A stretch of DNA of 64,000 bases from contig JBBTWT010000007.1 of NCBI GenBank assembly GCA_038078615.1, positions 1,060 through 65,059 of the forward strand, read 5' to 3'. Positions within the stretch are counted from its first letter, which is position 1, and each line of letters opens with the position of its first letter. This stretch comes from Patescibacteria group bacterium (GTDB taxonomy: Bacteria > Patescibacteriota > Minisyncoccia > Moranbacterales > UBA1568). A model generated the notes under the pieces. It ran no database searches, was not told where the DNA came from, and was given only the letters and a program-made list of their open reading frames with translations. This document shows positions 7,341 through 40,780 of the stretch, piece by piece. A program made the translations under genes and the position numbers.

Positions 7341-7570
7341 TGAATTCTTACTCTAGAGCCTCTTATCCGGCTCTACATCCTTTGGTTGAGTCTTATTCTC
7401 TAATCCGAAGGGAAGAGATAAGATTTAATCCGTAAAAGGCGCCCACTTTTGGTACATTTCTTCGTTGCAAGCTCTGGTACTCGCCGCTGTTATGTGACAT
7501 ACAGCTTGCTCCGTTCCTCCCTTGCGCCTCGAACTGCACTCAAAAGCGAACGCCTTATACAATAACAGAT

Positions 7571-9642: not shown

Positions 9643-11697
9643 ATGCCGGTATTCCGTCTCCAATCACCCTATCAGCCGGCTGGCGATCAGCCTCAGGCGA
9701 TCGTGTCTCTGGTGCGCGGATTGCGCGAGGGCAAGCGTTCCCAGACATTGCTCGGCGTGACCGGATCCGGCAAGACCTTCACGATGGCCAATGTCATCGC
9801 GCAGATGGATAAGCCGGCGCTCGTCATCGCGCACAACAAGACGCTCGCGGCGCAGCTCGCGCAGGAATATCAGGAATTTTTTCCCGATCACGCCGTGCAT
9901 TATTTCGTCTCGTATTACGACTACTATCAGCCGGAAGCCTATATGCCGACGACGGATACGTATATCGAGAAAGACGCGCAGATCAATGCGGAGATCGATC
10001 GTCTGCGGCACGCCTCCACGCAGTCGCTCCTGACGCGCCGCGACGTGATCATCGTCGCTTCCGTCTCGTGCATCTACGGGTTGGGCAGTCCTGCGGAATA
10101 TGAGAAGGAGAATATGCGTCTCGAGACCGGTATGCCGTGCTCGCGGACGGAGCTCCTCCACCGGCTCGTATCCATCTTCTTCGAGCGTACCAATGCCGAT
10201 CTGTCTCCCGGGCAATTCCGGAGCATCGGCAACCGCATCGAGATCATGCCGATCTCGGAGAAATTCATCTACCTGCTGGAAATTATCGGCGGCCGACTGG
10301 GGAGCATCACGAAGATCGATCCGGTATCGCAGAAGATCCTCGATACTCCGACGACTATCTTTCTTTTTCCGACGAAGCACTTCATCACGGACAAGGATCA
10401 GAAAGATTTCGCGATACAGTCCATCCGTCTCGAGCTCGCAGCACGATTGCAGGAGCTCGAGGCCGAGGGGAAAATTCTCGAGGTGGAGCGGCTCAAGCGG
10501 CGCACGAATTATGACCTGGCGATGATGCAGGAGATCGGCTATTGCAGCGGCATCGAGAACTATTCACGCCATCTGTCCGGCAAGGAGCCTGGCGAGCCGC
10601 CGGAGACGCTGCTCTCATATTTCCCCCGCCGTCGTAAAAGCTCTGGCGGGCAGGCGCACACTGATGTTTGGGAGCCTGATTTTCTAACAATTATAGATGA
10701 GTCGCACGTGACTTTGCCGCAGCTCCGCGGGATGTACGCCGGCGATCAGGCGCGCAAGAAAACGCTCGTCGAGTACGGCTTCCGCCTGCCCTCCGCGCTC
10801 GATAACCGGCCGCTCCGCTCCGAGGAATTCATGGAGCGGGTAGGACAGATGGTGTTCACGTCCGCGACGCCGGCGGACTATGAACGCGAGACAAGCGGGC
10901 AGATCGTGGAACAGGTGATCCGTCCGACCGGTCTCATCGACCCGGAAGTGGCGGTGCTGCCGATTCATGAGACAAAAGAGTATCCTGGACAAATTCAGGA
11001 TTTTATCGCGCAGACTGAAGAAGAGGTGAAAAAAGGCGGGCGCGTGATCGCGACGACCTTGACAAAAAAGATGGCGGAGGACTTGAGTACGTATCTGAAA
11101 GAAAAGAACATCAAGTCCGAATACCTGCACAGCGATATCAAGACCATCGATCGCATCAAGATCCTGACCCGGTTCCGCAAGGGAGAGTTCGATTGTCTGG
11201 TGGGAGTGAATCTGCTCCGTGAGGGACTCGATCTTCCCGAGGTATCGTTCATCGGCATTCTCGATGCGGACAAGGAGGGATTTCTCCGATCGGAGACTTC
11301 TCTCATCCAGATCATCGGCCGGGCAGCGCGCAATGTGTCCGGCCGCGTCGTCTTGTATGCCGAACGCATTACCGGATCAATGGAGTATGCTCTCAGCGAG
11401 ACGAATCGGCGCAGGAAGCTCCAGATGGCGCACAATAAGCTGCACGGCATCACGCCGGCTACGATCAAGAAGACGATCCACGACATCACGGAAGCCTTGG
11501 AAAGCGAGCATGACAAGGCGGTGCGCGCCAACATCGGCCTGGACCGGGAGATATTCGCCAAGAACCCCGAGAAGCTCATCAGGCTGAAGGAAAAAGAGAT
11601 GCGGGAAGCGGTGAAGGCGCTGGACTTTGAAACGGCGGCGATCCTCCGCGACGAACTCGCCATACTGAGGGGAAAAACGGACAAGATGTTGGGATGA
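9643..11697 (+). CDS. uvrB: Excinuclease ABC subunit B
   Basis: GVTGSGKTFTMA, DESHVTLPQ, YGFRLPSALDNRPL, LREGLDLPEVS and the C-terminal UVR motif. Carries a 16-aa insertion at 10627-10674. Confidence 0.95.
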   Translation: MPVFRLQSPYQPAGDQPQAIVSLVRGLREGKRSQTLLGVTGSGKTFTMANVIAQMDKPALVIAHNKTLAAQLAQEYQEFFPDHAVHYFVSYYDYYQPEAYMPTTDTYIEKDAQINAEIDRLRHASTQSLLTRRDVIIVASVSCIYGLGSPAEYEKENMRLETGMPCSRTELLHRLVSIFFERTNADLSPGQFRSIGNRIEIMPISEKFIYLLEIIGGRLGSITKIDPVSQKILDTPTTIFLFPTKHFITDKDQKDFAIQSIRLELAARLQELEAEGKILEVERLKRRTNYDLAMMQEIGYCSGIENYSRHLSGKEPGEPPETLLSYFPRRRKSSGGQAHTDVWEPDFLTIIDESHVTLPQLRGMYAGDQARKKTLVEYGFRLPSALDNRPLRSEEFMERVGQMVFTSATPADYERETSGQIVEQVIRPTGLIDPEVAVLPIHETKEYPGQIQDFIAQTEEEVKKGGRVIATTLTKKMAEDLSTYLKEKNIKSEYLHSDIKTIDRIKILTRFRKGEFDCLVGVNLLREGLDLPEVSFIGILDADKEGFLRSETSLIQIIGRAARNVSGRVVLYAERITGSMEYALSETNRRRKLQMAHNKLHGITPATIKKTIHDITEALESEHDKAVRANIGLDREIFAKNPEKLIRLKEKEMREAVKALDFETAAILRDELAILRGKTDKMLG

Positions 11698-13929: not shown

Positions 13930-14241
13930 ATGATGCAGAAACAGATCATAGGGCTTGCCGCCTCCGTGCTCGTGCTCGGCCTCGTGCTCGCGTTCGTGTA
14001 CCGGCAGTTTGCGGTACCGGTTCCGGATGCCAAGGAGCAGATGAAGACAACCGCCTTGCAGCCGGAGAAGAAGGCGCCGGAGCCCGCGACTATCGACGAT
14101 ATCTCGCAGAGTATCCAGGACGAGACGAATCTGGATCTCTCCGCCCTCGACGATGAGGCGAACGGCGAGATTTCGGGCATCGAAGCCGACAGCGACAGCG
14201 TAAATAATTTAGGAACATCTTATGATGAAAACAGCCTGTAA
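13930..14241 (+). CDS. Small membrane-anchored acidic protein (hypothetical)
   Basis: TM segment IIGLAASVLVLGLVLAFVY followed by an acidic low-complexity tail. Confidence 0.5.
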   Translation: MMQKQIIGLAASVLVLGLVLAFVYRQFAVPVPDAKEQMKTTALQPEKKAPEPATIDDISQSIQDETNLDLSALDDEANGEISGIEADSDSVNNLGTSYDENSL

Positions 14242-15073
14242 GAGATATTCTTTCGCCGGATTTTCGATGCTTTCCATCGCGGCCGTGGTGATGCCGCTGT
14301 CCGTGTCGGCCGCCACGTTCGAGGAACGCCAGGCGGAGCGCGAGGAGAATCGCCAGGAACGGGCGGCGGAGATGAAGGCAAATCGCGAGGAGAGGGTCGC
14401 GGAGCGGCAGGAGAATCGCCAGGAGGCGTTCTGCAATCGGTTCACGGAGAATGCGGAAAAGATAGCAAGCAATCTCGCCGAGCGCCGCGGGAAATTCGAA
14501 GACCGCAGGGAAAACCGCGCGAATACGCTCGAGACGCGCCGCGACGGACGCGAGGCGAAACTGGATGGCAACCGGACAGAGGCCGATGAGCGCCGCAGCG
14601 CGATGTACGCCAGACTCGAGGCGCGCGCCACTACCGATGCACAGAAGGCGGCCGTAGCGGAATTCAAGAAAACCGTGGAAGAAGCCGTCGATACGCGCCG
14701 TGACGCGGTCGATGCCGCCATCGCCGAATTCCGCAAGGGCGTGGATGCGGCGATCGCCGGACGCAAGGATGATATGGAAAGCGCGGTGTCGCAATTCCAG
14801 AGCGAGGTCGTTGCGGCTCTCGGCAAGGCGAAATCGGATTGCGCGGATGGTGCCAACCCCGAGACGGTGAAAACCAACTTCAGAAACAGTCTCGCAGCCG
14901 CGCGCACCGCCTTGCAGAACGATCGCAAGGACGCGGACAAAGTCGGAGAACAGGTGAAGAAGCTCGCGGAAACCCGCCGCATTGCCGTGAGGAAAGCGCT
15001 GGATGACTTCAGATCGGCCGTAGAAGCCGCGCGGGTGGAATTGAAAAAAGCCTTCGGCGAAGCCTCGCCATAG
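14222..15073 (+). CDS. Secreted helical-repeat (apolipoprotein-like, Arg/Glu-rich) protein
   Basis: Signal peptide ...PLSVSAATF followed by repeated E/R/A-rich heptad-like segments. Confidence 0.6.
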   Translation: MMKTACKRYSFAGFSMLSIAAVVMPLSVSAATFEERQAEREENRQERAAEMKANREERVAERQENRQEAFCNRFTENAEKIASNLAERRGKFEDRRENRANTLETRRDGREAKLDGNRTEADERRSAMYARLEARATTDAQKAAVAEFKKTVEEAVDTRRDAVDAAIAEFRKGVDAAIAGRKDDMESAVSQFQSEVVAALGKAKSDCADGANPETVKTNFRNSLAAARTALQNDRKDADKVGEQVKKLAETRRIAVRKALDDFRSAVEAARVELKKAFGEASP

Positions 15074-15947: not shown

Positions 15948-16646
15948 ATGACAGAGAACATCCGTGAGCGTTTTATAGTTACCGCAGACGATTACGGCAT
16001 CCGCCAGACAGCGGAGCCGATTTTGCGCTTGGCGCACGAGGGGAAGATCGATCGCGTGGCGGTGCTGATCCACTATGTCTCCGCCGAGCAGGCGGAAGCG
16101 CTCAAGGCGACGGGAGTGAAGATCGACCTGCATCTGGAACTGATCGGGCTTCTGAAAAGCGGGGAGAAGATGCATGAGAGCGTTCTCGTGCGGAGCGTCA
16201 ATTTCATATTCCGCCGTATCGCCGGGCTGGCGACCGCGAAGAAAGTCGAGCAGGAATGGAGAGACCAGATCGTGCGCTTCCGCGATATCTTCGGCCGTCT
16301 GCCCGACGGGCTCAATTCCCATGAACATCTGCACTGTTTCCCGCCGTTTTTCAGGGTGTTCACGAAACTGGCGGAAGAATACCGCATATCGTATATCCGT
16401 TTCGGGAAGAAAGGCATGCTCACCGGCCTGCATGGGGCGTTCATCGGCGAGATTCTCGCTTTCTTCTGGAAGCGGACGCATCCCGCCTATGTCAAGACGG
16501 CGCTCGCGACATCCGATTATCTCGTGAGCCTGGATTGGCTCGCGGATTTCAAGTCTTTCAGCGAACGGCTGCCCTCCGGCAGTATCGAGCTGGTCGTGCA
16601 TCTGGAGCGCGAGGAGGATTATCGGATCATACTCGAGTATTTCTGA
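15948..16646 (+). CDS. ChbG/HpnK (YdjC-like) carbohydrate deacetylase family protein
   Basis: [15 protein letters not shown] and LNSHEHLH match the YdjC-family metal-site pattern. Confidence 0.7.
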
Positions 16647-16667
16647 CGGATCTCCCGTTTTTTTGTC

Positions 16668-16696
16668 TTGATATGCCTGCCTTTCGATGGTATACT
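16668..16696 (+). promoter_or_regulatory. Promoter for the first uvrA paralog
   Basis: TTGATA (16668-16673), 17-nt spacer, TGgTATACT (16688-16696). Confidence 0.55.
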
Positions 16697-16717
16697 GCCT
16701 TTCCTATATTTTCGCAT

Positions 16718-19318
<2,601 letters not shown>

Positions 19319-20711: not shown

Positions 20712-22157
20712 ATGGAGAAACTGTGGGAGAAAATATACACGCTTGAAGCGTTTCAGAAGAAAAACGCGTTGCCGGAAGCGCCGGGAGCGTATTTTTTCCT
20801 GGACGCGGGGAAAGAGTTGCTCTATATCGGCAAGGCGACCTCGCTTCGCGATCGGGTGAAGAGCTATTTTTCGCGCGACATCGCCCTCTCTCGCGGTCCG
20901 AAAATAATGCGGATGCTCGAACAGGCGCGTTTCATCGCGTATCGGCAGACGGACTCCGTTCTCGAGGCGCTGATCCTGGAATCCAGACTGATAAAAGAAC
21001 ATCAGCCTCCATACAACACTGATGCCAAAGACGACAAGAGCTACAACCATATCGCCATCACGCAAGAAAAATTTCCGCGCGTGCTCATCGTGCGCGGCCG
21101 CGACCTCGTAAACCGACAACCGACAATTTACCCTGTGAAATCCAGCATAGCTGGTCCGCCGAAGGCGGAATTTCATAGGGCAAGCAACCGACAACAAAAA
21201 ACAAGATACAAATACATATTCGGACCGTTTCCGCACGGTATGCAGCTGCGCGAGGCGCTCAAGATCATCCGCAAGCTGTTCCCCTTCCGGGACAAATGTT
21301 TACCCGCCGAAGTCTTGACGAAGGAGGGCATGCCATCAAAAAAAAGAACAGAGCTGAAGCCGTGTTTCAACAGGCAGATCGGCTTGTGTCCCGGAGTATG
21401 CACCGGCGAGATTTCCGCACGAGAGTACGGACGCATTATCAATCACATCCGCCTGTTCTTCGAAGGGCGCAAGAGCGTGCTTGTCAGAAAGCTGGAACGC
21501 GAGATGAAGACGGCGGCGAAACAGCTGGCATTCGAGCGGGCGAGCGAGATCAAGAAGACATTGTTCGGGCTGCGGCATATCCAGGATATGGCGCTGGTGA
21601 AGGACGACCAGCAGTTAACAGTGAACAGTCAACAAAAAACAATAAGGATCGAAGCTTATGATGTCGCGCATCTGGGGGGAGACGCGAGCGTGGGAGTGAT
21701 GGTCGTTTTGAGCAATGGCCAAGCAGACAAAGAATCTTATAGAAAATTCATTCTGCGCGGCGGACACAACGGCAATGACCTGACTGCGCTCCAAGAGATC
21801 CTGGCGCGCCGTCTGAAACATACCCCGCCCGCAACGTTTCGCAAGCGAAGCGCAGCGATTCGGGCAGGCGAGTGGCCGCTGCCGGATATCATCGTGGTGG
21901 ATGGCGGAGAGCTTCAAGTGAGGATGGCCCAGCAAGCCATCCTCAACTTAGCGGTTTCACCGCTAAGTAAACTGCGTGGTGGAATTTCGGTCGTGGGCGT
22001 GGTGAAGAATGCCAAGCATCAGCCCGAGCGCCTCATCGGACCAGAGACGCTGACGAAGCGTTTCAAAAAAGAAATCCTGCTCGCCAATAGCGAAGCGCAT
22101 CGTTTCGCCATCACCTTCCACCGCAAGCGCCGAGGAAAGGAGTTTCTGAAGATGTAG
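20712..22157 (+). CDS. uvrC: Excinuclease ABC subunit C, short form
   Basis: GIY-YIG (GAYFFLDAGKELLYIGKATSLRDRVKSYF ... LESRLIKEHQPPYN), UVR domain (LEREMKTAAKQLAFERASEIKK) and RNase-H-like nuclease (IEAYDVAHLGG). It ends at FHRKRRGKEFLKM with no (HhH)2 domain. In-frame insertion at 21108-21212. Confidence 0.9.
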   Translation: MEKLWEKIYTLEAFQKKNALPEAPGAYFFLDAGKELLYIGKATSLRDRVKSYFSRDIALSRGPKIMRMLEQARFIAYRQTDSVLEALILESRLIKEHQPPYNTDAKDDKSYNHIAITQEKFPRVLIVRGRDLVNRQPTIYPVKSSIAGPPKAEFHRASNRQQKTRYKYIFGPFPHGMQLREALKIIRKLFPFRDKCLPAEVLTKEGMPSKKRTELKPCFNRQIGLCPGVCTGEISAREYGRIINHIRLFFEGRKSVLVRKLEREMKTAAKQLAFERASEIKKTLFGLRHIQDMALVKDDQQLTVNSQQKTIRIEAYDVAHLGGDASVGVMVVLSNGQADKESYRKFILRGGHNGNDLTALQEILARRLKHTPPATFRKRSAAIRAGEWPLPDIIVVDGGELQVRMAQQAILNLAVSPLSKLRGGISVVGVVKNAKHQPERLIGPETLTKRFKKEILLANSEAHRFAITFHRKRRGKEFLKM

Positions 22158-22245: not shown

Positions 22246-25044
22246 ATGCCAGAGAAAAAGCCGATGATCGAGATTCGCGGCGCGCGGGTCAACAACCTGA
22301 AGAACGTGGACGTCGATATCCCTCGTGATGCTTTGGTGGTGGTGACCGGCTTGTCCGGTTCGGGCAAATCCTCATTAGCTTTCGATACTCTTTTCGCGGA
22401 AGCGAATCGGCGCTATGTCGAGTCGCTTTCTTCGTATGCGCGCAATTTTCTCGACGGATTCGACAAGCCGGACGTCGACGCGATCCACAACCTTTCGCCC
22501 GCCATCTCCATCGACCAGAAGAGCGTGTCGAGGAGCCCGCGTTCGACGGTCGGGACGATGACGGAGATCTATGATTACCTGCGTATCCTGTTCGCCAAGC
22601 TCGGGATTCCGCATTGTCCATCGTGCGGCAAGCGTCTCACAAGAAAGAGCGTGCGCGAGATACTCGAAGAGCTCCTCCTCCTGCCCGACAAGACGCCGCT
22701 CGCATTCATCGCGTATGGCAAGGCGCTCGCCGACAAGACCGAACGCGAGGCGCTCTCACTCATCAATGCCTGGGGATACGTACGGGTCCTGTTTCACGGG
22801 GAGCTCTCGCCGATCGCCGAAGCGATAGGACGCGCGTCCGCGACGGAAATCTCGGATATCGGCGTGGTCGTCGACCGTCTCGAGATCGACCTGTCCCGTC
22901 CCGACAAGGAGCGTATCCTCGATTCGCTCCAGACCGCGTTCCGCGTCGGCCAGGGGACGCTCACGCTCCGCATCAATGGTACCGGTGAAGAACGTATCTA
23001 CAACGAGGAATACCGCTGTGAAGAATGCCATATCGGGCTGCCGGAGTTCACGCCGAGCTGCTTTTCCTTCAACAGTCCCGAGGGCGCGTGCGAGAAGTGC
23101 GCGGGCCTTGGCGTGACGCTCGAATTCGATCCGGAACTCGTCATCCCCAACAAGAACCTGTCGCTCGCCGAAGGGGCGATCCGTCCGTGGAGCAAGATGA
23201 ACAGCGACCGCCACAGCGGCAACGGGCCGATGCAGTGGCTGCGCGACGCGAGCCGGCGGCACAAATTCTCGCTCGATATTCCGGTGAAGAAGCTCGCCGG
23301 TAAGCATTTCTCCCTCATACTGCACGGGGAAGGCGGCACGGAGCAGGATGCCTTTCCCGGCATCATCGCGCTTCTGGAGAAGAAATACCGCGAGACGAAA
23401 TCGGATCATCTGCGTACGGACATCGAGGCGTATATGCTGACCAAGCTCTGCCCTCTCTGCGAGGGGAAGCGCCTGAAGGCGGCATCGCTCGCCGTGAAGA
23501 TAGAGGGACTTTCTATCGATGATCTCGTGAAGCAGAGCGTCGATATGTTCCTGGAGAGGATGAAGCCGCTGCGGGAAAAATGCCTGAAGACGGGCGAGAA
23601 GAAGATGATCGATCCCTTGTTCCGCGAGATGGAGATGCGGCTCTCCGCCGTGGAAAAAGTGGGACTCGGATATCTCGAGCTCTCGCGCGGCGCCGATACG
23701 CTGTCCGGAGGAGAGGCGCAGCGTATCCGCCTGTCAGTGCAGATGAAATCTGGGCTTTCCGGCATCATCTATGTCCTCGACGAGCCGTCGATCGGGCTGC
23801 ACAGCCGCGATACGGAACGCCTGATCAACGCGCTCGAGGATCTGCGGAAAGCGAACAATTCTCTCGTGATCGTCGAGCATGACGTGGCGATCATGCGCCG
23901 GGCGGACTATATCATCGATCTGGGTCCGGGCGCCGGCAGCGAGGGCGGCGAGATCATCTTCGCGGGCACGCCGGACAAGCTGATGCGCTCGAAGCTCCTG
24001 ACCGGCGAATACCTCTCCGGCAAACGCAGCATATCCGAGAAGAAGAAGGCGCGTCGTCTGAGCGAAGAGGCGATCACTGTTTTCGGCGCGACGGAACACA
24101 ATCTGAAGAATGTCGACGTGAAGATCCCGCTCGGGATGCTCGTGGCGGTTTCCGGCGTCTCGGGATCGGGCAAATCGAGCCTGGTGCATGACATCCTGTC
24201 CCGGGCGCTGTCGAAATATTTCTATCATGCCAAGGCCGAGCCGGGCGCGCACAGGAAGATCGAGGGGATCTCGAATATAGACAAGGTGATCGCCGTGACG
24301 CAGGATCCGATCGGACGGACGCCGCGTTCGAACGCGGCGACGTATACCGGCATCTTCAGCCTGATCCGCGACCTGTTCGCGGCGACGACGGAAGCCGAGC
24401 GCGAGAAATATTCCGCCAGTCATTTCAGCTTCAATATGCGCGGCGGCCGCTGCGAGGCATGCCAGGGCGGCGGATTGAAGAAGATCGAGATGTATCTCCT
24501 GCCGGATGTCTACGTACCGTGCGAAGTCTGTCAGGGGACGAGATACAACGCGAAGACGCTCTCGATCGAATATCGCGGAATGAATATCGCGGCCGTGCTC
24601 CGCATGACGGTCACGGAAGCGCGCCGCTTCTTCCTGGATCAGCCGATGATCGAAGAGAAGCTGCGCGTGCTCGAGGAAGTCGGTCTCGGATATCTGGTAC
24701 TCGGACAGAGCGCGACCAACCTCTCCGGAGGAGAGGCGCAGCGTATCAAGCTCGCGACAGAACTGGCACGAAAATCGACCGGCAAGACGCTCTATATCCT
24801 CGACGAGCCGACGATCGGCCTGCATTTCGAGGATGTGCGGCGCCTGCTCGAGGTGCTCGAAGCGCTGACGGACAAAGGCAACAGCGTGCTCGTCGTGGAG
24901 CACAATCTCGATGTCATCCGCTCGGCGGATTGGGTGCTGGAGCTCGGTCCGGACGGCGGCGCCAAGGGCGGGGAGCTCATCTTCTCCGGACCGCCGGACA
25001 AATTGAAAAACTGCAAGCGTTCATTCACGGCGAAATATCTATAA
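22246..25044 (+). CDS. uvrA: Excinuclease ABC subunit A (full-length type)
   Basis: [20 protein letters not shown] twice, [11 protein letters not shown], Zn modules, and an insertion-domain-length segment between CAGLG and CPLCEGKRL. Confidence 0.95.
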
Positions 25045-25084: not shown

Positions 25085-25149
25085 CCGGAAGTTTTCAGAT
25101 GAACCGTGCCGAAGAGGTTTCGCCACATGGTTCCCTAAAAAACTTCCGG
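25085..25149. repeat. Rod-like hairpin element, short copy (core shared with 47539-47655)
   Basis: CCGGAAGTTTT ... AAAACTTCCGG 11-bp outer stem. The inner 39-40 nt AGATGAACCGTGCCGAAGAGGTTTCGCCACATGGTTCCCT differs at 2 positions from 47561-47600. Confidence 0.85.
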
Positions 25150-25182
25150 AATCCTTTTGACACTGCGCTACTATCACAACAT

Positions 25183-26103
25183 ATGTCCTATCTTCTGGGA
25201 AAAAATATAGTGGTGACGGTGACGTATTATGACGTGTTCGATATGCCGCTCACGGTTCTCGAGATATGGAAGCATCTGATGGCGCAGGACTCCGGAGACG
25301 GGCATGGGGAGCCGTGTACGCTCGGCGATGTCGCCAGGTTCCTGGCAGCGGGGACTCTTGACGCGAAAATCGGGGGGAAAAACGGATTCTATTTCCTGCG
25401 CGGACGGGAGGATCTCGTGGCGCAGCGTATCCGGGCGGAGAAGCTTTCCGTCGCGAAGCTCAAACGGATGCGGCGTCTGGCGCGGCTCCTCGCGTATGTC
25501 CCGTATCTGCGGATGCTCGGCGCCACGGGAAGCCTCGCCATGAAGCATGGCGAACGGGAAAGCGACTGGGATATGTTCGTCGTCCTGCGCTCGGGCAAGA
25601 TCTGGACCGGACGGACGCTTCTGACCGGGTTCCTCCATCTCATAGGCAAGCGGCGGCATGGCGACCGGGTGCGGGATCGCGCCTGTCTCAATTATTTCGT
25701 CACGGACGACAATCTGGAAATCGGGACCAAGGACATGTTTTCCGCGCATGAGTACCGTTTCTTCATCCCGCTGCTCAACTTCAGGCTGTTCCAGGTATTC
25801 GAGCTGAAGAATCGCTGGATACGGGACTATCGCTCCAATTTCGCACTGACGACGCTGCCGAGCCTGTGGACCGTACCGGAGAGCCTGTGGGCGCGGCGTA
25901 TGCAGGGCGCGCTGGAAAGGGTTCTCGGGTTTCTCGATATCGAACGGTGGCTCGCGTCCTGGCAGAAGGAGAAGATCCGCCGTAACCCGAAAACGGCCCT
26001 GGAGGGAAGCCTGATCGAAGCGCATGATCGCGCACTGATTTTCCTGCCGCATCCGCAGGGACCGCGCGTCTTTGAGAAATTCAAGGAGCGCCTGAGCGCC
26101 TGA
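25183..26103 (+). CDS. Nucleotidyltransferase-fold (Pol-beta-like) domain protein, hypothetical
   Basis: GATGSLAMKHGERESDWDMFVV resembles the GS..(n)..D.D NTase motif. Start moved to ATG 25183 because 25099-25149 is the repeat element. Confidence 0.55.
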   Translation: MSYLLGKNIVVTVTYYDVFDMPLTVLEIWKHLMAQDSGDGHGEPCTLGDVARFLAAGTLDAKIGGKNGFYFLRGREDLVAQRIRAEKLSVAKLKRMRRLARLLAYVPYLRMLGATGSLAMKHGERESDWDMFVVLRSGKIWTGRTLLTGFLHLIGKRRHGDRVRDRACLNYFVTDDNLEIGTKDMFSAHEYRFFIPLLNFRLFQVFELKNRWIRDYRSNFALTTLPSLWTVPESLWARRMQGALERVLGFLDIERWLASWQKEKIRRNPKTALEGSLIEAHDRALIFLPHPQGPRVFEKFKERLSA

Positions 26104-26127: not shown

Positions 26128-26136
26128 TGGTATAAT
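26128..26136 (+). promoter_or_regulatory. Extended -10 promoter for pilC
   Basis: TGgTATAAT. Confidence 0.5.
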
Positions 26137-26173
26137 GCGGATACAAAATACATACAAAAAAAGCATCCGAAAT

Positions 26174-27394
26174 ATGCCGAAATTCCTCTATACCGCAAAA
26201 AATATCACGACCGGAGAGAGTTCCGGCGGCGAAGCGGAGGCCAAAGATGAGAAGACGCTGGCTCAGGAGCTCCGGGCGCGGGGGATTTTGCTGACTTCGC
26301 ACAAGGAGTTGGAGGCGAAGAAAACCATCAGTATCAGATTTTTCGACCGTTTCATATCGGTGCCGCTCAAAGAAAAAATGGTGTTTACGCGGAATCTCGC
26401 CGTTATGGTTTCATCCGGATTGACGGTTTCTCGGGCGGTGCATAACCTGAGCGTGCAGACGAAGAATAAGAAGTTCAAAAAAATTCTCTTGAGCGTCTAT
26501 GACGAGGTGCAGGGCGGCAAGATGCTTTCGGAAGGCATGGCACAGCATCCAGGAGTGTTCAACGAGCTGTTTGTCAATATGGTCGGCGTCGGAGAGGTTT
26601 CCGGCAATCTCGAGGAAGTGCTCGATATTCTCGCGCTCCAGCTGGAAAAAGAGAACGATCTCCTCTCCAAGGTGCGCGGGGCGCTCATCTATCCAGCGGT
26701 CATCGTCGTCGCGATGATCGGCATCGCCATCCTGATGCTGACATATATCCTGCCGAAGATCACCAGCGTGTTCCAGGATATGGACGTGACCTTGCCGGCA
26801 ACGACGCTATTCATCATCGGGGTGAGCGATTTCCTGCGCAATCATGCCATACTCAGCATCCTGTTCGCGGCGGCAGTCATCGTAGGTGTCAAATTATTTT
26901 CCGGTACGAAAGCCGGGAAGCGTTTTTTCGGGCTGCTGTTCGTCTATATGCCGATCGTCGGCAATATCATCATCAAGGTGAACTGCGCCCGCTTCGCGCG
27001 CATCTACAGCTCTCTCCTGAAAAGCGGCATCTCGGTGGTCAGCGGGCTTACCATCGTGTCCAAAACGCTCGGTAACGTCTATTACAAGGACGCGTTGGCC
27101 GAAGCCATCGGAGAGATACAGAAAGGCGTCGAGCTCTCCAAGGTGATCGCGAAATATCCGCGCATATTTCCGGTTCTCGTGACGCAGATTCTCGAAGTCG
27201 GCGAAGAGACCGGAAAAACGGAGACTGTGCTCCGGCGTCTGGCGGAATTCTACGAAGAGGAAGTCTCGCAGATCACCAAGAATATGTCGTCGATCATCGA
27301 ACCGATCCTGATGCTCCTTATCGGAGGATCGGTCGGGTTTTTCGCGGTGGCGATGCTGCAGCCGCTGTATTCCGTTCTCGAGAATATAAAATAG
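26174..27394 (+). CDS. pilC: Type IV pilus / T2SS platform protein (GspF/PilC family)
   Basis: Two T2SSF-type repeats, three TM regions, and typical MPKFLYTAKN..G N-terminus. Confidence 0.85.
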   Translation: MPKFLYTAKNITTGESSGGEAEAKDEKTLAQELRARGILLTSHKELEAKKTISIRFFDRFISVPLKEKMVFTRNLAVMVSSGLTVSRAVHNLSVQTKNKKFKKILLSVYDEVQGGKMLSEGMAQHPGVFNELFVNMVGVGEVSGNLEEVLDILALQLEKENDLLSKVRGALIYPAVIVVAMIGIAILMLTYILPKITSVFQDMDVTLPATTLFIIGVSDFLRNHAILSILFAAAVIVGVKLFSGTKAGKRFFGLLFVYMPIVGNIIIKVNCARFARIYSSLLKSGISVVSGLTIVSKTLGNVYYKDALAEAIGEIQKGVELSKVIAKYPRIFPVLVTQILEVGEETGKTETVLRRLAEFYEEEVSQITKNMSSIIEPILMLLIGGSVGFFAVAMLQPLYSVLENIK

Positions 27395-27401
27395 TTTTTT
27401 T

Positions 27402-28772
27402 GTGTTCGCTACAAGCTACAGGCTACAAGCTACAGGCTACAGGGGATTCACGCTGATCGAAGCGCTGGTTTTGCTGTTTATTTTCGCCGTGGTGTCCATG
27501 ACTTTCCTCGAGACGTACGCGACCGGAACGCGCCTCATCATAGAGTCGAAAAACCGGCTCGGAGCGACAGCGCTTGCCAATCAGAAGATGGAGATCATCC
27601 GCAGCATCGACTACGATATTATCGGTACGACGACCGGTATCCCGGCAGGAGATATTCTCGAGTATGAAACAATCAGCGTCAACACGGTGAAGTATCGGGT
27701 GCATACGTTCGTTCAGTATGCCGATGATATTTTTGACGGACAGCTGGGGGGCAATCCGACCGATACGATTCCCAACGATTACAAACGCGTCAAAATTTCC
27801 GTTTCGTGGGGTGCTCTGGGAACGGATCAGACGGTTTCTTTGTTTACGAATATCGCTCCCGATGGCGTGGAAACTTCGGCAGGCGGCGGCGTGCTCTCGA
27901 TCAATATCCTGGATTCCGCCGGTATGGGAATGTCGGGCGCCTCGGTGCATATCGTGAATAGCGCTGCCGGTGTCGACGTAACGACGCAAACCGACGCGAC
28001 CGGCAATATCACTTTGCCGGGTACGCCGGCAGGAACGCAGAATTATGCATTGACCGTTTCGAAGGGCGGTCATTACGGAGTTATGACGTATCCGCCGTAT
28101 CCGACGTCTCCGTACAATCCGATCGATGAACACGCGTCGGTAGCGGCAGGGGTTTTGAATCAGAAGTCGATGGTTATGGATCAGTATGCCGATATCACGG
28201 TGCGGTCGAAAGACCCGTTCGGAACGGATGTACCGAACATCGCTTTCAATATGACGGGTGGGAAAATTCTTGGCACGGATCCGGTAACACTGGCGTCGAT
28301 CTATGAATACAATCAGAATCTGAGCACGAGTGCTTCCGGCGTCAAGGACATCGCGGATCAGAGTTACGGCCAGTATACGCTTGCGGAATCCGATGCGCGT
28401 TATCAGTTGCACAAGCTGAGTCCGGAAGGCGCGACGAAAGATATATTCGACGCTCTGGCGGGGCAGGCGACAGCGGTGGATATGGTACTCCTGGATACTC
28501 AGATCGGTTCGGTGAAGGTTGTGGTCATCAATGATGCCGATGGCAGTCCTATCGCGGGGGCGACTGTGCGCCTTACGAACACATCGCTCGGGTACGACGC
28601 GACCCAGTTGTCCGATCAGTACGGGTTCGCGTATTTTCCGACCGCGCTTCCGGGACTCGTGGCCGGAACGTATAATCTCGCGGTGAGCGCGACTGGTTTT
28701 CAAAGTGATACTGATACGGCGAATGTGAACAATGCTCTGATCACGGAAACCATTGATTTGATTCCAAACTGA
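27402..28772 (+). CDS. Large prepilin-type protein with CarboxypepD_reg-like beta-sandwich repeats
   Basis: Class III signal ...GYRG/FTLIEALVLLFIFAVV (G-F-T-L-I-E). Two segments resemble G.V.V....G.P..GA.V.L......TD..G...F. GTG start directly after the pilC stop. Confidence 0.75.
   Translation: MFATSYRLQATGYRGFTLIEALVLLFIFAVVSMTFLETYATGTRLIIESKNRLGATALANQKMEIIRSIDYDIIGTTTGIPAGDILEYETISVNTVKYRVHTFVQYADDIFDGQLGGNPTDTIPNDYKRVKISVSWGALGTDQTVSLFTNIAPDGVETSAGGGVLSINILDSAGMGMSGASVHIVNSAAGVDVTTQTDATGNITLPGTPAGTQNYALTVSKGGHYGVMTYPPYPTSPYNPIDEHASVAAGVLNQKSMVMDQYADITVRSKDPFGTDVPNIAFNMTGGKILGTDPVTLASIYEYNQNLSTSASGVKDIADQSYGQYTLAESDARYQLHKLSPEGATKDIFDALAGQATAVDMVLLDTQIGSVKVVVINDADGSPIAGATVRLTNTSLGYDATQLSDQYGFAYFPTALPGLVAGTYNLAVSATGFQSDTDTANVNNALITETIDLIPN
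27408..27442 (+). repeat. Heptanucleotide tandem repeat (GCTACAR)x5 inside the prepilin leader coding region
   Basis: GCTACAA GCTACAG GCTACAA GCTACAG GCTACAG, read directly. Confidence 0.95.
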
Positions 28773-28777
28773 AGTCT

Positions 28778-29401
28778 ATGCGGAAACAGATGCTCAAAGC
28801 GATGACACTAATGGAAGTGCTGGTGGCTATCGCCGTTATGCTGATCGCTATGGAAGGATTCACGCTTTTGTTCGTGAAAAGCTGGGATACGAACAAATTC
28901 ATTTTGGAAGAGGGTCTGGCGTCGGCGGCGGCTTCACGCGCCACCAACAAGATCATCGGCGAGTTGCGTCATGTGCGCCAGGCGGACAATGGCGATTATC
29001 CCGTCGAATCAGGATCGGATTTTGATCTGAAGGTGTATCTGGATGTGGATAAGGACGGCGTTACCGAGCGCGTGCATTATTTCCTGGATCAGGACACGGA
29101 TGAACTGAAAAAAGGCGTTACGAATCCGCTCACGACTCAGCCGATCAGTTATCCGGCGGGTGATGACAGCGTGTCGGTGCTCACGAATTATGTCGTGAAT
29201 GAAAGCACGGATCCGGTCTTTTATTACTACAATGAAAATTATCCGGGTGATACGGCGAATAATCCGATCGCGACACCGGCAGCGGTCGATCAGGTGCGTC
29301 TGATCCGAGTGCACCTGTTCGTGAATATCAATCCGGTCCATGCGCCGGACAATATCAATATCGAATCTTTCGCCGATCTCCGTAATCTGAATTCCCTATG
29401 A
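28778..29401 (+). CDS. Prepilin-type N-terminal domain protein (pseudopilin)
   Basis: KAMTLMEVLVAIAVMLIAMEG hydrophobic N-terminus with Glu at +5. Confidence 0.7.
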   Translation: MRKQMLKAMTLMEVLVAIAVMLIAMEGFTLLFVKSWDTNKFILEEGLASAAASRATNKIIGELRHVRQADNGDYPVESGSDFDLKVYLDVDKDGVTERVHYFLDQDTDELKKGVTNPLTTQPISYPAGDDSVSVLTNYVVNESTDPVFYYYNENYPGDTANNPIATPAAVDQVRLIRVHLFVNINPVHAPDNINIESFADLRNLNSL

Positions 29402-30810
29402 TGAATCAACAGGGATACGGCCTCAAAGGATCAGCGCTGGCTTATGGCCTGGTCATTATGACGACGGTAGCGATCATACTGACTTCCATCATCGGTTTTG
29501 TGGCATCGCAGACCAAGTATTCTTTGCAGACGCATGCGCGCGAGGAAGCGCTCCAGATCGCGGAGGCCGGCATCCATTTTTATCAGTGGTATCTCGCGCA
29601 TACTACGGACGGACGGACAACGCAGCAGATACAGGCGTTCTGGGCTTCCGGTACCGCTTATGGAGTCGATACCGCCTATGAAGCGGAATATACCGATCCT
29701 TCCGGAGGCGCGGTCGGGAAGTATCGGATCACGGTAACGCCGCCGACCCAAGGGTCGACGATCGTCACTGTCCGTTCAGTCGGCTGGACATACAAATATC
29801 CGAATGCCACTCGCACGATAGATGTCCGTTTTCGTCGGCCTTCCTGGAGTGAACATGTCGTCTTGGCCAATGCTTTCACCCGTTTCGGAGCCGGGACGGA
29901 GACATTCGGAAAGATCCATTCGAATTATGGTATCCGTTTCGACGGTATCGCGCACAATATCGTCACGAGCGCTGTCTCGAGCTACAACGACCCTGATCAT
30001 ACGGGCGGCAATGAATTCGGCGTGCATACGCACGACAGTCCGATTGATCCTCTGCCACCGGCGGCAGTGCCGAGCCGGACAGATATCTTTGAGGGCGGAC
30101 GCCAATTTCCGGTAGCGGCAGTGGATTTCAACGGGGTGTTGGGGGACTTGAGTTATATCAAAAGTGTCGCGCAGGCCGGAACGGACGGGAGCCTGTATTT
30201 CGATAATGCCAATCAGGGACGGCATATCATCTTGAAAACGAATGATACGTTCGACATCCGTACCGTGCAGAGTTTCAACGCATCCACGAATGGGATTATC
30301 AACTATCAAGGAGGGTGGTCTACATACGCTCTTCCCGATGAAGGAGTGATTTTTGTCGAGGGTCATGTGTGGCTGGAAGGGGCGATCACCGGCAAGCGCC
30401 TCACGATTGTTGCGGCCAATCTCTTGTCCGCGTCCGTGAAAAATGTGTATATCGGCAAAGATATACGGTACACGAATTATGACTGTACGGACATTTTAGG
30501 CATTATCGGTCAAAAAGACGTGGAGATTATCAGAGGGAGCGAGGATGACCTGTGGATTGACGGGGCGCTCCTCGCACAGAGCGGGCGTGTCGGACGCTCA
30601 AATTATGGGACTTCCGATCATAAGAGCGTCATTACCGTGTATGGTGCGCTGGCGACGAATCAGCGGTATGGTTTTGCATGGACAAACGGGACTCTGAACT
30701 GGGGATATACCACTCGGAATCTGTATTATGACAACAATCTCCTGTATTGTCCGCCGCCGTATTTCCCGGTCGGTACGCAGTATGAGATGGATTTGTGGGA
30801 GGAGAAATAA
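29398..30810 (+). CDS. Large minor-pilin / PilX-like protein (hypothetical)
   Basis: N-terminal TM segment LAYGLVIMTTVAIILTSIIGFV. Lies inside the pilin operon, with its start overlapping the previous stop (ATGA). Confidence 0.55.
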   Translation: MMNQQGYGLKGSALAYGLVIMTTVAIILTSIIGFVASQTKYSLQTHAREEALQIAEAGIHFYQWYLAHTTDGRTTQQIQAFWASGTAYGVDTAYEAEYTDPSGGAVGKYRITVTPPTQGSTIVTVRSVGWTYKYPNATRTIDVRFRRPSWSEHVVLANAFTRFGAGTETFGKIHSNYGIRFDGIAHNIVTSAVSSYNDPDHTGGNEFGVHTHDSPIDPLPPAAVPSRTDIFEGGRQFPVAAVDFNGVLGDLSYIKSVAQAGTDGSLYFDNANQGRHIILKTNDTFDIRTVQSFNASTNGIINYQGGWSTYALPDEGVIFVEGHVWLEGAITGKRLTIVAANLLSASVKNVYIGKDIRYTNYDCTDILGIIGQKDVEIIRGSEDDLWIDGALLAQSGRVGRSNYGTSDHKSVITVYGALATNQRYGFAWTNGTLNWGYTTRNLYYDNNLLYCPPPYFPVGTQYEMDLWEEK

Positions 30811-30907: not shown

Positions 30908-30916
30908 TGTTACAAT
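30908..30916 (+). promoter_or_regulatory. Extended -10 promoter for pilM
   Basis: TGtTACAAT, followed by an A-rich leader GAGAAAAACAAAACAGAAAG before ATG 30942. Confidence 0.5.
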
Positions 30917-30941
30917 GATACGAGAAAAACAAAACAGAAAG

Positions 30942-32039
30942 ATGATGAACATATTGCAGAAAAAAATATTCGATATTTTTCCGGGGTCGTTCGGGCTCGA
31001 TCTTTCCGATCTCTCGATGAAGGCCGTGTGGCTCGATCGGGTGGGGCATCACGACTCCATCATGAGTTTTGGTTCCGTACCTCTGCCTATCGGGAGCGTG
31101 GTTGACGGAGAAATTATGCATCCCGAGGCGGTGGAAGATGCTGTCAAGAACCTACTGGAAAAGTCCGGTCCGAAAAAGCTGAAAACGCGGAAAGTGATGT
31201 GCTCGCTTCCGGAAACCAAGGCGTTTCTCCGCATCATCTCGCTTCCCGTGATGGAAGAAGACGAGGTGCGGGAGGCGATCAAATGGGAGATCGAGGCGAA
31301 TATCCCTCTCACGCTCGATCAGGTGTATTATGACTGGCAGACGCTTGATCTGAACCTGGCTCGGGAAAAAGGGAAAATGAGCGTGCTCGTGGTCGCGGTG
31401 GCGCGCAGCGTCGTGGATCAGTTTCAGACCGTACTCGCGGCCGCCGGTCTCGAGGTCGTGGGACTCGAGACGGAATCCATCGCCCAGGCGCGCAGTCTGC
31501 TTCCTGAAAAAAACGAGGAGCGCACCACGCTCATCGTCGATATCGGTGACCGTCGGACGAGTTTCCTCATCGCGATCGGCAGTACGCCGTGTTTCACTTC
31601 AAGCGTACCTCTTTCTTCGCAGATGATAACGGATGCCATTGCCAAATCGCTCCATCTCTCGTTCGAAGAAGCGGAATCGATCAAAATCAAGCAGGGCTTG
31701 GGATCGCTCGCACTCAAGAGCCCCGTTTTGAAAGCAGCGCTTCCGGTGCTTGAGAATATCGCCGTGGAAATCGAAAAATCCACTGACTTCTACTTGAATA
31801 ATCTCCGCTATTCCGACAATATCGATGCTATCGTGCTCTGCGGAGGAGGATCGAATATGCAGGGACTGCTGCCATATATGGCGCGCCGCCTGGGACGGCC
31901 GATCGAGTTCGGCAACCCTTGGGTGAATATGCAACTTGGAAAACAGTTGCCGATCATCGACCGCAATCACTCCGTACAGTACTCAACCGCTATCGGACTC
32001 GCGTTGCGAGGCCTCGACGAATATGAAGATTTTGCTTAA
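30942..32039 (+). CDS. pilM: Type IV pilus assembly protein PilM (actin-like ATPase fold)
   Basis: FGLDLSDLSMKAV, LIVDIGDRRTSFLI and VLCGGGSNMQGL match the PilM/FtsA-like pattern. Confidence 0.85.
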   Translation: MMNILQKKIFDIFPGSFGLDLSDLSMKAVWLDRVGHHDSIMSFGSVPLPIGSVVDGEIMHPEAVEDAVKNLLEKSGPKKLKTRKVMCSLPETKAFLRIISLPVMEEDEVREAIKWEIEANIPLTLDQVYYDWQTLDLNLAREKGKMSVLVVAVARSVVDQFQTVLAAAGLEVVGLETESIAQARSLLPEKNEERTTLIVDIGDRRTSFLIAIGSTPCFTSSVPLSSQMITDAIAKSLHLSFEEAESIKIKQGLGSLALKSPVLKAALPVLENIAVEIEKSTDFYLNNLRYSDNIDAIVLCGGGSNMQGLLPYMARRLGRPIEFGNPWVNMQLGKQLPIIDRNHSVQYSTAIGLALRGLDEYEDFA

Positions 32040-32586
32040 CCTCCTGCCGGAGGAAAATAAGAAAAATATCCAAGCCGCATTCCACTTTCGTTTTTTTCTG
32101 TGGCAGCTGTTCCTGGTATTCGTGCTCGAGGTATTCTATCTGAGTATGCTCGCGAGCACCTACTTCGTCCTGGATGCCCAGCTGCAGAGTCTGCAGATGC
32201 TGGGTCGGCAGTATGATACGGCGCACGCGGAACAGAAGACGCTGGACACGTATCAGACGAAGTTCAAGGATACGAACTCTGCCGTCGACGTCATCGGCGC
32301 CATCGAGCGCAACCATTTCTCCTTCACGCAGATATTCGTCCTGCTCGATGCCGTGGTGCCGGAGGGTGTCATGGTTGATCGCCTGACGACCAAGAATTAT
32401 ACGGTGATGCTGACCGGTCAGGCGGCGACCCGCGACGACCTGCTGGCGTTCGATGCCCGGCTGAAGGAATCGGCATGCGCGGAGAACGTCAATGTGCCGC
32501 TTTCGAACCTGTTTTCCCAGGAGAATGTGGATTTTCAGATCGATTTCGGGATAAAGAAGGAATGCCTGAAGAACAACAGCTTATGA
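32023..32586 (+). CDS. pilN: PilN-like bitopic protein
   Basis: MKILLNLLPEE start, a single TM, and position after pilM with a 17-nt overlap. Confidence 0.6.
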   Translation: MKILLNLLPEENKKNIQAAFHFRFFLWQLFLVFVLEVFYLSMLASTYFVLDAQLQSLQMLGRQYDTAHAEQKTLDTYQTKFKDTNSAVDVIGAIERNHFSFTQIFVLLDAVVPEGVMVDRLTTKNYTVMLTGQAATRDDLLAFDARLKESACAENVNVPLSNLFSQENVDFQIDFGIKKECLKNNSL

Positions 32587-33338
32587 TACTCTCTCCGTAC
32601 AGGAAATATACGCCGCTCGCCGCGCTCTCCATGCTGCTCATAGCCATGGGAGGCATCGTCTGGTTCGGCATGAAGCCGCTGCAGCGATCGCTCGAGGAGA
32701 AGATGAGGGGCATCCAGGAATTCTATGCCGGACGGGAAAATCGCGAGAGGCAGGTGGGCAGGCTTCCGGAACTGCGGGGGCAATACGATGCTATTTTGGA
32801 AAATGAAGAGACGCTTGATATTCTCATTACGGAAGACAGAGTGGTGGATTTTGTGAAAACCTTGGAAGCGCTCGCGGACGGGATGAATGTGAAACTGAGT
32901 ATCGTCTCGAAGGACAACGGAAAAATCACCGAGAAAAAGCCGGCTGTCGCGCCGGTTCAGCCGCAGGGCGCCTCTGCCGATCCGACCGCTCCTCCGGTGC
33001 CATCCGTCAAACCGAAACCCGCGGATATCCTGGAGGATGCGCCTTTCGATCGCTCTCTGCATCTGAGCGTCACGGTAGAGGGACGGTACGGCGATATCGT
33101 CGCGTTTTTGCGCAAGATGGAGACGCTGCCGATCGGACTGGATGTGATAGGCGTCGAGATGAAGAAGATAGACGAGCAATCGGCCGAGCGGCCGAGCGCA
33201 CGGGGTGCCGGCGCCAATCCGTTCGCCATTCTCGGCGACAGCCGAAGCGTGACGGCCGAACCGGAGGCGGCAGTCAGGGGCGATCTGGAAGCTACGTTCG
33301 ACATACTCGTCTATGTGGATAAGAAAACCGCCCTATGA
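32583..33338 (+). CDS. PilO-like bitopic protein (hypothetical)
   Basis: ATGA overlap with pilN. Single TM followed by coiled-coil and a C-terminal alpha/beta region. Confidence 0.5.
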   Translation: MILSPYRKYTPLAALSMLLIAMGGIVWFGMKPLQRSLEEKMRGIQEFYAGRENRERQVGRLPELRGQYDAILENEETLDILITEDRVVDFVKTLEALADGMNVKLSIVSKDNGKITEKKPAVAPVQPQGASADPTAPPVPSVKPKPADILEDAPFDRSLHLSVTVEGRYGDIVAFLRKMETLPIGLDVIGVEMKKIDEQSAERPSARGAGANPFAILGDSRSVTAEPEAAVRGDLEATFDILVYVDKKTAL

Positions 33339-40636: not shown

Positions 40637-40637
40637 G

Positions 40638-40780
40638 GAATTTTCAATTTTTAGTTTTCAATTTTCAAACAATGATACGATGATCCAATTTTCGAAAGCT
40701 TTCCGGTTCCGCAAGGCACATTTGAAAATTAGGTCATTGGAAATTCATTAGAAATTGAAAATTGAAAATTGGAAATTGAC
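40638..40780. repeat. Inverted arrays of heptanucleotide repeats, (TTTTCAA)n and (GAAAATT)n, between mraZ and rsmH
   Basis: Left arm 40641-40668: TTTTCAA TTTTTAG TTTTCAA TTTTCAA. Right arm 40750-40780: GAAATT GAAAATT GAAAATT GGAAATT GAC. The arms are mutually complementary. Confidence 0.9.

Follow-up and report, generated by a model that had tools for sequence, protein, structure and literature searches.

The 64,000-nt stretch of contig JBBTWT010000007.1 analysed here (hereafter the window, from a Patescibacteria group bacterium of the Moranbacterales) encodes, within a type IV pilus cluster, a 456-aa minor pilin whose 15-aa prepilin leader, MFATSYRLQATGYRG, is translated almost entirely from a tandem heptamer array, (GCTACAR)x5. 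Comparison with orthologous loci (designated L001, L002 and so on; coordinates without a locus name are window positions) establishes that this leader is a gene-specific, fast-evolving heptamer-repeat sequence. Slipped-strand switching of the pilin gene is, tentatively, the best single explanation of the heptamer leader.

A heptamer array encodes the leader of a modular minor pilin

The pilin open reading frame (ORF) at 27402-28772 (+) has the N-terminus MFATSYRLQATGYRG/FTLIE, in which the slash marks the prepilin processing site. Positions 27402-27461 read GTG TTC GCTACAA GCTACAG GCTACAA GCTACAG GCTACAG GG GGA TTC ACG CTG ATC GAA, and 5' of the GTG the window reads AAAATAG TTTTTTT. The leader coding sequence therefore runs from the start codon to the G(-1) codon at 27444-27446 (27402-27446, +), and the candidate slipped-strand tract occupies 27408-27442 (+), ahead of G/FTLIE. 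The initial annotation had described five tandem heptamers encoding nearly the whole leader, and both the sequence and Tandem Repeats Finder agree (period 7 with 5.1 copies and 89% matches at 27408-27443; period 14 with 2.4 copies and 100% matches at 27408-27441). The array has a lag-7 match of 0.73 (p = 0.002 against shuffles), and the double-unit pattern GCTACARGCTACAR has a single site in the 64-kb window, a count expected 0.02 times per shuffle and reached by none of 100 dinucleotide-preserving shuffles. A genome-wide dispersed family of one unit was ruled out on the same ground, the window holding a single GCTACAR array; the other arrays found in the window and in the orthologous loci have units unrelated to GCTACAR.

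The repeat lies inside the ORF, 3' of the only usable start and 5' of the processing site, as initially annotated. From the in-frame stop upstream as far as the G(-1) codon, GTG 27402 is the sole start in frame, and it aligns with the ATG of an 80%-identical orthologue (L153), with which the window gene shares both a 15-codon leader and the upstream T-run; a T-run ahead of the start is common to the orthologues with 15-aa leaders. In the window this T7 run (27395-27401, +) makes up the entire spacer between pilC and the pilin gene and contains no Shine-Dalgarno sequence. Its predicted pairing with the A-rich pilC 3' end would mask the GTG, in a fold no better than those of shuffles (z = -0.46), and the pilin may be translationally coupled to pilC.

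An identical protein, and hence an equal copy number, was recovered from the independent Logan assembly of run ERR3858122 (L001), so that the array is not an assembly artefact of one record. The protein cluster to which the window pilin belongs has one member, recorded on two to three contigs in two assemblies with an identical sequence throughout. Chance and assembly artefact were thus ruled out together, by the shuffles, by the second independent assembly and by the recurrence of arrays in orthologues described below.

The junction MFATSYRLQATGYRG/FTLIEALVLLFIFAVV carries a class III signal, namely a short, polar or basic leader ending in Gly (G-1), a hydrophobic helix and E+5, and residues G15, L18 and E20 are invariant among 25 orthologues. 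The Pfam family N_methyl scores 19.2 bits on the 456-aa protein, just below its cut-off of 21.2. Cleavage of the leader by prepilin peptidase is expected from these features. Two descriptions of the leader had to be corrected: it had been called non-basic and has two Arg, and it had been called unusually long and is, at 15 aa, of the commonest length in the orthologue family (modes at 12, 15 and 18-19 aa).

The mature protein (27447-28772, +) combines the FTLIE N-terminal helix and a pilin beta-sheet with three beta-sandwich domains. In an AlphaFold2 model (pLDDT, the predicted local distance difference test, 77.7), a helix at residues 18-68 is followed by a small pilin sheet and by beta-sandwiches at 164-258, 263-365 and 370-453; Pfam places CarboxypepD_reg at 372-442 (E = 1.4e-17, two matched stretches), and Foldseek matches the beta-sandwich domains to CnaB-type stalks of Gram-positive pilins and adhesins, with E-values down to 9e-16. 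Because it joins a pilin N-terminal module to extra folded C-terminal domains, the 456-aa protein is a modular minor pilin; among the minor pilins of the operon it comes first and is the largest. Modular pilins, consisting of a pilin module and accessory domains, are also present in Streptococcus sanguinis. Surface exposure is supported by the prepilin N-terminus, the pilus cluster and the adhesin-like beta-sandwich modules; that the protein is a tip or host-binding component is probable on this evidence.

Recurrence and turnover of heptamer leaders among orthologues

A protein search returned 431 homologues, and in the best 120, whose leaders we compared, the mature parts are conserved and the leaders very different. 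Many of these leaders resemble translated heptamers in their own right (for example ATSYKLQ, NQESRIK, IQDTRYK, FKIQDSR and KSKIKNQ). At the DNA level we drew on 80 species-representative genomes, 60 metagenome contigs and 15 further contigs. The names that homologues and loci bear place the organism of the window in Candidatus Moranbacteria. Strong period-7 arrays numbered 13 in 994 kb, nine of them within the 45 nt before the G(-1) codon of the pilin, a region that makes up 0.37% of the sequence (binomial 8.5e-20); every other period from 4 to 15 contributed zero to three arrays. Apart from the window, the nine leader arrays are those of L011 and L015 (GAATCAT), L012, L032 and L049 (ATACAAA), L016 (CAACATT), L019 (TTCAAAA) and L022 (ATAAGCC/AAAAGCT), and two more were added later, in L107 (ATCCGAA) and L142 (AATCAAG).

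In the 48 nt leading up to the G(-1) codon, lag-7 periodicity was significant (p < 0.01) at 27 of 115 unique loci. The mean autocorrelation there has maxima at lags 7, 14 and 21, which are seen neither 100 nt upstream nor inside the mature coding region. Other prepilin-type leaders from the same loci reached p < 0.01 in one case out of 101, with no lag-7 peak (Fisher p = 1.8e-7 for 27/115 against 1/101), and this control ruled out a general permissiveness of prepilin leaders. The recurrence of arrays in the leader of this one gene makes the window array an instance of a gene-specific feature and no accident. Unit sequences differ between species, and a conserved peptide or binding site therefore cannot explain the arrays; a conserved leader peptide and a sequence-specific binding site were accordingly ruled out, as both units and peptides vary among close relatives. 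The initial annotation had suggested comparing orthologous pilin genes, with the same peptide encoded by non-repetitive DNA as the outcome that would count against a switch. Orthologues instead carry different peptides, many of them encoded by heptamer arrays of their own at the same place, which gives the hypothesis much more weight than it had from the single locus.

These arrays also turn over. In L019 the array is (TCAAAAT)3 followed by TCGACAT, and in L156 it is a single TCAAAAT followed by three TCGACAT-type units, at equal array length and with upstream DNA 98.5% identical (identity is 93% over the first 300 nt that code for the mature protein). The same two-base difference in two units implies that units were copied rather than independently mutated. 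A third array, that of L155, reads (TCAAAAA)4. The window array is likewise purer (lag-7 match 0.73) than the homologous and equally long 35 nt of L153 (0.41). Within the class of GCTACAA-type arrays, leaders of 8 aa (two units) and 15 aa (five units) differ by exactly three units, as expected if the number of units changes but only in-frame states become fixed.

Leaders can be unrelated within protein clusters of at least 90% identity, even where 441 mature residues are 100% identical (pairs such as MHTISYQLKAKSYSG and MFFRSQHSTFNIQHSIRG, or MMRYFFQNSKFKIRHSYRG and MMKGFIQKSKIKNQKSLKG), and different leaders sit on mature proteins that are 99.8-100% identical. In one comparison the replaced unit is a whole segment: L016 and L143 share 99.85% identity across 1361 nt of pilC and 99.3% across 2797 nt of the pilin gene from the G(-1) codon, and between the pilC stop and the leader/mature junction they hold unrelated sequences of 139 and 181 nt (L016:5865-6003 and L143:1362-1542). 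A structured RNA element of ~100 nt lies within the swapped segment, present in L143 and absent from L016. Two further loci, L142 and L146, have ~100 nt of intergenic DNA in common (in each case ~93-94% identical to the element in L019) and have leaders that cannot be aligned (61% identity over -60 to -1). Both flanks of the segment, the DNA for the PilC C-terminus (...MYSVLENIK*) and the GFTLIE-coding DNA, are highly conserved across species and could serve as homology arms for exchange.

Such observations raise the possibility that the whole segment from the pilC stop to G(-1), comprising the spacer, the leader and in some cases the ~100-nt structured RNA, is swapped by homologous recombination through the conserved flanks, the segments being alternative expression cassettes and the heptamer arrays passengers. 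The near-identical flanks of L016 and L143, the shared element of L142 and L146, and the unrelated leaders on identical mature proteins all favour exchange, and a clustering of scaffold gaps and contig ends at the leader points the same way. Swapping would account for the distribution of leaders but not for the origin of their periodicity, and constant-length unit turnover beneath the same upstream segment, as between L019 and L156, is left unexplained. We consider exchange an improbable explanation of the heptamer leader, and one that is compatible with the others and not exclusive of them.

Assembly breaks at the variable leader numbered four against 1.2 expected (p = 0.04). Two 100-N scaffold gaps (L030:1250-1349 and L039:1931-2030) span exactly the interval from the pilC 3' end to the pilin N-terminus, and the contigs L006, L035, L111 and L122 begin 8-51 nt past the G(-1) codon. 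Contig breaks were considered as a proxy for population heterogeneity, and were not relied on because the enrichment is weak.

The ~100-nt element is conserved and rod-like and occurs at 7447-7548 (+) in the window, at L143:1376-1476, L019:5822-5924 and L044:5820-5920, and at other loci. RNAalifold applied to 18 element sequences gave 30 pairs; compensatory double changes occur in 18 of these. The element lies between pilC and the pilin gene in 15 of the 80 species loci, in single copy and with its end 20-60 nt short of the pilin start; the element of the window is instead 20 kb away, 23 nt 5' of a DEAD-box helicase ORF (7571-8776). Rfam returned no gathering-threshold match for the window, three loci or the element, and for the element none even at E <= 10. 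It is a candidate for a new small RNA or 5'-untranslated region (5'-UTR) element of Moranbacteria.

Frame states and the case for a possible slipped-strand switch

We determined frame states by adding or removing units in silico. With two, five or eight units the window gene is ON from GTG 27402; with four or seven units, translation yields a 15- or 22-aa peptide ending in CGCTGA and no alternative start is available (OFF). The proposal that a change of one 7-nt unit or one 14-nt double unit would cost the reading frame was thus borne out. For three or six units the only start in the mature-pilin frame is a TTG at 27400-27402 (+), which overlaps the GTG (TTGTG). Since this TTG comes into frame after the gain of one unit (or the loss of two), one shifted phase may be leaky rather than OFF, so that the question of alternative starts raised by the initial annotation has a divided answer, with none at four or seven units and TTG 27400 at +1 or -2. 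Among the array-bearing orthologues, 12 of 17 are OFF at both one and two units gained or lost.

Under a slipped-strand switch, the tract would act as a slippage-prone heptanucleotide simple-sequence repeat (SSR) placed in a part of the gene whose peptide sequence would hardly matter, as the leader would be removed by prepilin peptidase. A 7-nt unit does not make up a whole number of codons, so that adding or removing one or two units puts the mature pilin out of frame. Five units would allow reading from GTG 27402 through G/FTLIE (ON), four or seven would end translation after 15 or 22 codons (OFF), and three or six would leave the weak TTG 27400 alone, probably with low expression. The outcome would be a stochastic mix of cells with and without a pilin stalk bearing adhesin-like beta-sandwich modules. 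Slipped-strand mispairing in a dispensable translated tract is the most economical single mechanism, and it would set the frame of a probable tip adhesin. Appreciable present-day slippage and existing OFF cells would follow from it, as would an ON/OFF state that matters for host attachment and arrays maintained by selection for switchability. We hold this reading tentatively because length polymorphism and OFF alleles, sought at the consensus level, were not found.

Several observations weigh against a switch. None of the 143 loci that include the site carries an OFF allele, an in-frame start being present in all, and the 17 distinct array loci are all in frame, for which the probability would be ~8e-9 if phase were random. 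Copy number is equal across independent assemblies (the window and L001; L015, L086, L087 and L088; L016 and L089), and leader length is constant in more than 60 contigs of the array-bearing 90% clusters. The arrays are short, at 3.4-5.1 units against the longer ones of known loci. In the GAATCAT/GTATCAT arrays (L011, L015/L087 and L154) the ATG lies within the unit, so that unit changes 5' of it leave the frame intact, and these three of the 17 arrays do not go OFF in the simulation. Some leader diversity, as between L016 and L143, reflects replacement of the entire intergenic-plus-leader segment and not slippage. Finally, housekeeping genes carry in-frame heptamer arrays too (lepA of the window, an ORF of L062), showing that these genomes make heptamer arrays without any need for switching. 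Of the contingency-locus architecture initially proposed, the geometry and the frame arithmetic stand, and neither an OFF allele nor a copy-number difference between assemblies was found.

Truncated gene calls were examined as possible OFF alleles and rejected as such: the in-frame starts behind P0032, P0172, P0096, P0115, P0077 and P0043 are intact, and P0099, checked via its locus L090, likewise has an intact upstream start, its truncation being a choice of the gene caller as in the other six. One allele is of ambiguous type. At L085:2350-2500 (protein cluster P0025, P0210-P0217) the sole in-frame ATG lies 49 codons upstream, right after pilC, which makes the leader 50 aa long; a nearer ATG, next to an A8 run, misses the frame by one base, and gene callers disagree on the length of the product (413, 423 or 490 aa). 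The leader may simply be long, or the homopolymer may have shifted the frame of this allele.

In lepA (ORF 61537-63390) the array AAAGTCA x4.7 is perfect (61732-61764, +) and is translated in frame as KVKSQKSKVKS. These residues belong to an insertion of 15 residues that a G-domain loop of LepA/EF4 has when compared with structure 2ywe, and gain or loss of a single unit would shift the frame of lepA. The array in L062 (positions 418-448, AATTTCC x4.4) is translated in frame as VISNFQFPISNNQ and sits in the orthologue of window ORF 25099-26103, the gene immediately 5' of pilC.

One rival reading is a neutral origin, in which a lineage-wide bias towards heptamer duplication acts on an unconstrained leader and purifying selection removes out-of-frame variants, with no function and no meaningful OFF subpopulation. 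Period 7 is the commonest even outside the leader (four of the 13 arrays among periods 4-15 found there), arrays sit in frame in permissive loops of LepA and of the L062 ORF, every allele is ON with no length variants, the arrays are short, and 88 of the 115 orthologues have no detectable periodicity. Left unexplained is the gene specificity: the 101 other cleaved leaders, and the unconstrained DNA just upstream, lack arrays, and the enrichment in the pilin leader is extreme (8.5e-20). The arrays are, moreover, far purer than their decayed homologues in close relatives and have been re-homogenised with new units, which needs frequent slippage or selection. We regard a purely neutral by-product as somewhat unlikely.

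A role at the level of the mRNA was also weighed, in which a G-poor, A/C-rich and unstructured stretch after a start lacking a Shine-Dalgarno sequence promotes or tunes initiation, in the ATG-containing arrays by way of tiny upstream ORFs, tandem duplication being the easiest way to such a stretch. The window gene and most orthologues have no Shine-Dalgarno sequence before the start, units such as AATCAAG, ATACAAA, TTCAAAA and CAACATT are A/C-rich and G-poor, the arrays are predicted to be mostly unpaired in the six start regions folded, and the GAATCAT/GTATCAT arrays create ATG...TGA mini-ORFs, out of frame, ahead of the real start. But an unstructured A-rich leader needs no 7-nt periodicity, and 88 orthologues of the same gene make do with non-periodic, Lys-rich leaders. 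The start regions have no structure in common and their folding energies resemble those of shuffles (z from -2.2 to +0.4), the unit GCTACAG of the window is not poor in G, and other pilin genes without a Shine-Dalgarno sequence have no arrays. We consider an mRNA-level role an unlikely basis for the repeats.

The competing explanations partly overlap with one another and with slipped-strand switching. A broader picture, which we hold to be somewhat unlikely, is of a hypervariable tip-pilin expression cassette in Moranbacteria, and perhaps in other Patescibacteria, in which a slipping heptamer leader, often preceded by the ~100-nt structured RNA, is swapped between strains that are 99-100% identical.

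Genomic setting, known systems and significance

The pilin gene follows the gene for the PilC/GspF platform protein (pilC, 26135-27394, +; Pfam T2SSF, E = 7.6e-57), whose stop lies 7 nt before the pilin start. Downstream, on the same strand, are a second minor pilin with the N-terminus A/MTLMEVLV and a leader free of repeats, which belongs to the control set of 101 leaders (28778-29401), a PilX-like minor pilin (29398-30810; PilX_N at 23.1 bits, just under the cut-off), pilM (30915-32039; PilM_2, E = 1.3e-50), pilN (31936-32586; PilN, E = 1.4e-6) and an ORF in the position of PilO, after pilN (32475-33338). The window ORFs that were scanned include no PilD, PilB or PilT. The remainder of the window carries housekeeping genes, including uvrA, uvrB, a DEAD-box helicase, a penicillin-binding protein and lepA.

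Two UvrA-like genes lie less than 6 kb apart, one at 16535-19318 (Pfam ABC_tran and UvrA_inter) and one at 22246-25044, which we take to be UvrA from its sequence only; uvrB (9643-11697) is nearby, and the ORF at 20712-22157 is presumably uvrC-like. A 33-nt tandem repeat (14333-14425, 2.8 copies, 71% matches) falls inside ORF 14222-15073, which has no Pfam match. Two further heptamer arrays, AATTTTC x4.3 (40639-40668) and AAATTGA x4.0 (40752-40779), are roughly inverted relative to each other within ~140 nt of intergenic DNA and could form a long hairpin. They lie between an ORF ending at 40637 and one with its ATG at 40789, presumably mraZ and rsmH as named from sequence.

Among characterised systems, the opa genes of Neisseria carry (CTTCT)n in the region coding for the signal peptide, with 2-30 units (Stern & Meyer 1987, tabulated in PMC5320596). 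As in the pilin leader, the repeat is translated, its unit is not a multiple of 3, it lies in the 5' coding part for the cleaved signal of a surface adhesin, and the number of units decides in which frame the mature protein is read. The opa unit is 5 nt long, against 7 nt here, and its 2-30 copies compare with 3.4-5 here; opa numbers vary between strains with many copies OFF, whereas no length polymorphism or OFF allele was seen in the pilin. The opa signal is a Sec signal peptide and one unit is kept, while here the leader is of class III (prepilin) and units differ by species. The pilC1 and pilC2 genes of Neisseria have a poly-G tract, (G)9-15, near the 5' end that varies between strains (Jonsson et al. 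1991; PMC5320596). They offer a parallel in frameshift switching at the 5' end of an accessory or adhesin gene of the type IV pilus, which here too would phase-vary piliation or adhesion; PilC itself is no pilin, however, and has a homopolymer tract, in contrast to the pilin-type subunit and heptamer array considered here.

Heptanucleotide units and an association with adhesin genes are shared with hmw1A and hmw2A of Haemophilus influenzae, in which an (ATCTTTC)n SSR of 11-63 units lies in the 5'-UTR (PMC12721329, PMC2651432). There the repeats grade expression via a long RNA hairpin cut by RNase III, whereas the five units here are inside the ORF. A 5'-UTR hairpin of the hmw type is not supported for the pilin, given that the array is translated and that no hairpin partner or consistent structure is predicted (z from -2.2 to +0.4).

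For the protein itself, the closest likeness is with Saccharibacteria, in which large minor pilins with accessory domains (PilX1 and PilX2 of TM7x) are host-binding candidates (PMC11623550). Those proteins also combine a pilin N-terminal module with extra domains, have their genes among those of minor pilins and are tip-adhesin candidates for host binding in an episymbiont; the accessory domains here are three beta-sandwich (CarboxypepD_reg/CnaB-like) modules and not a beta-propeller or lectin. A repeat-encoded leader is unreported for the TM7x pilins, PMC11623550 containing neither 'phase vari' nor 'frameshift'.

The arrays also bear some resemblance to the short tandemly repeated repetitive (STRR) sequences in being tandem heptamers that form a lineage's favoured class of short repeat and are occasionally translated. 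The cyanobacterial STRR sequences draw on few different units, which are distributed genome-wide and mostly intergenic. In the pilin loci, by contrast, units are particular to each array, that of the window has one site in 64 kb, and arrays are concentrated in one leader.

We know of no account of how Patescibacteria vary or regulate their type IV pili, and no link between Patescibacteria (the Candidate Phyla Radiation, CPR) and repeat-mediated phase variation was found in the searchable literature. Of the means that Patescibacteria have of locating and holding on to hosts, type IV pili have the best support (PMC9894109, PMC11623550). Even without a switch, the leader is a natural example of repeat birth, homogenisation and cassette exchange in a single gene, and the result leads to predictions that metagenome reads already available could test directly. 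For a switch, the new elements would be the heptamer units, the class III signal peptide, the species-specific units and the occurrence in Patescibacteria, and the principle of opa and pilC would then also hold for a signal peptide of class III and in environmental episymbionts. It would then be the first contingency locus described in the CPR, implying that ultra-small episymbionts gamble on whether, and how strongly, to display a host-binding component of the pilus, and it would provide tiny, regulator-poor genomes with a cheap stochastic switch for attachment.

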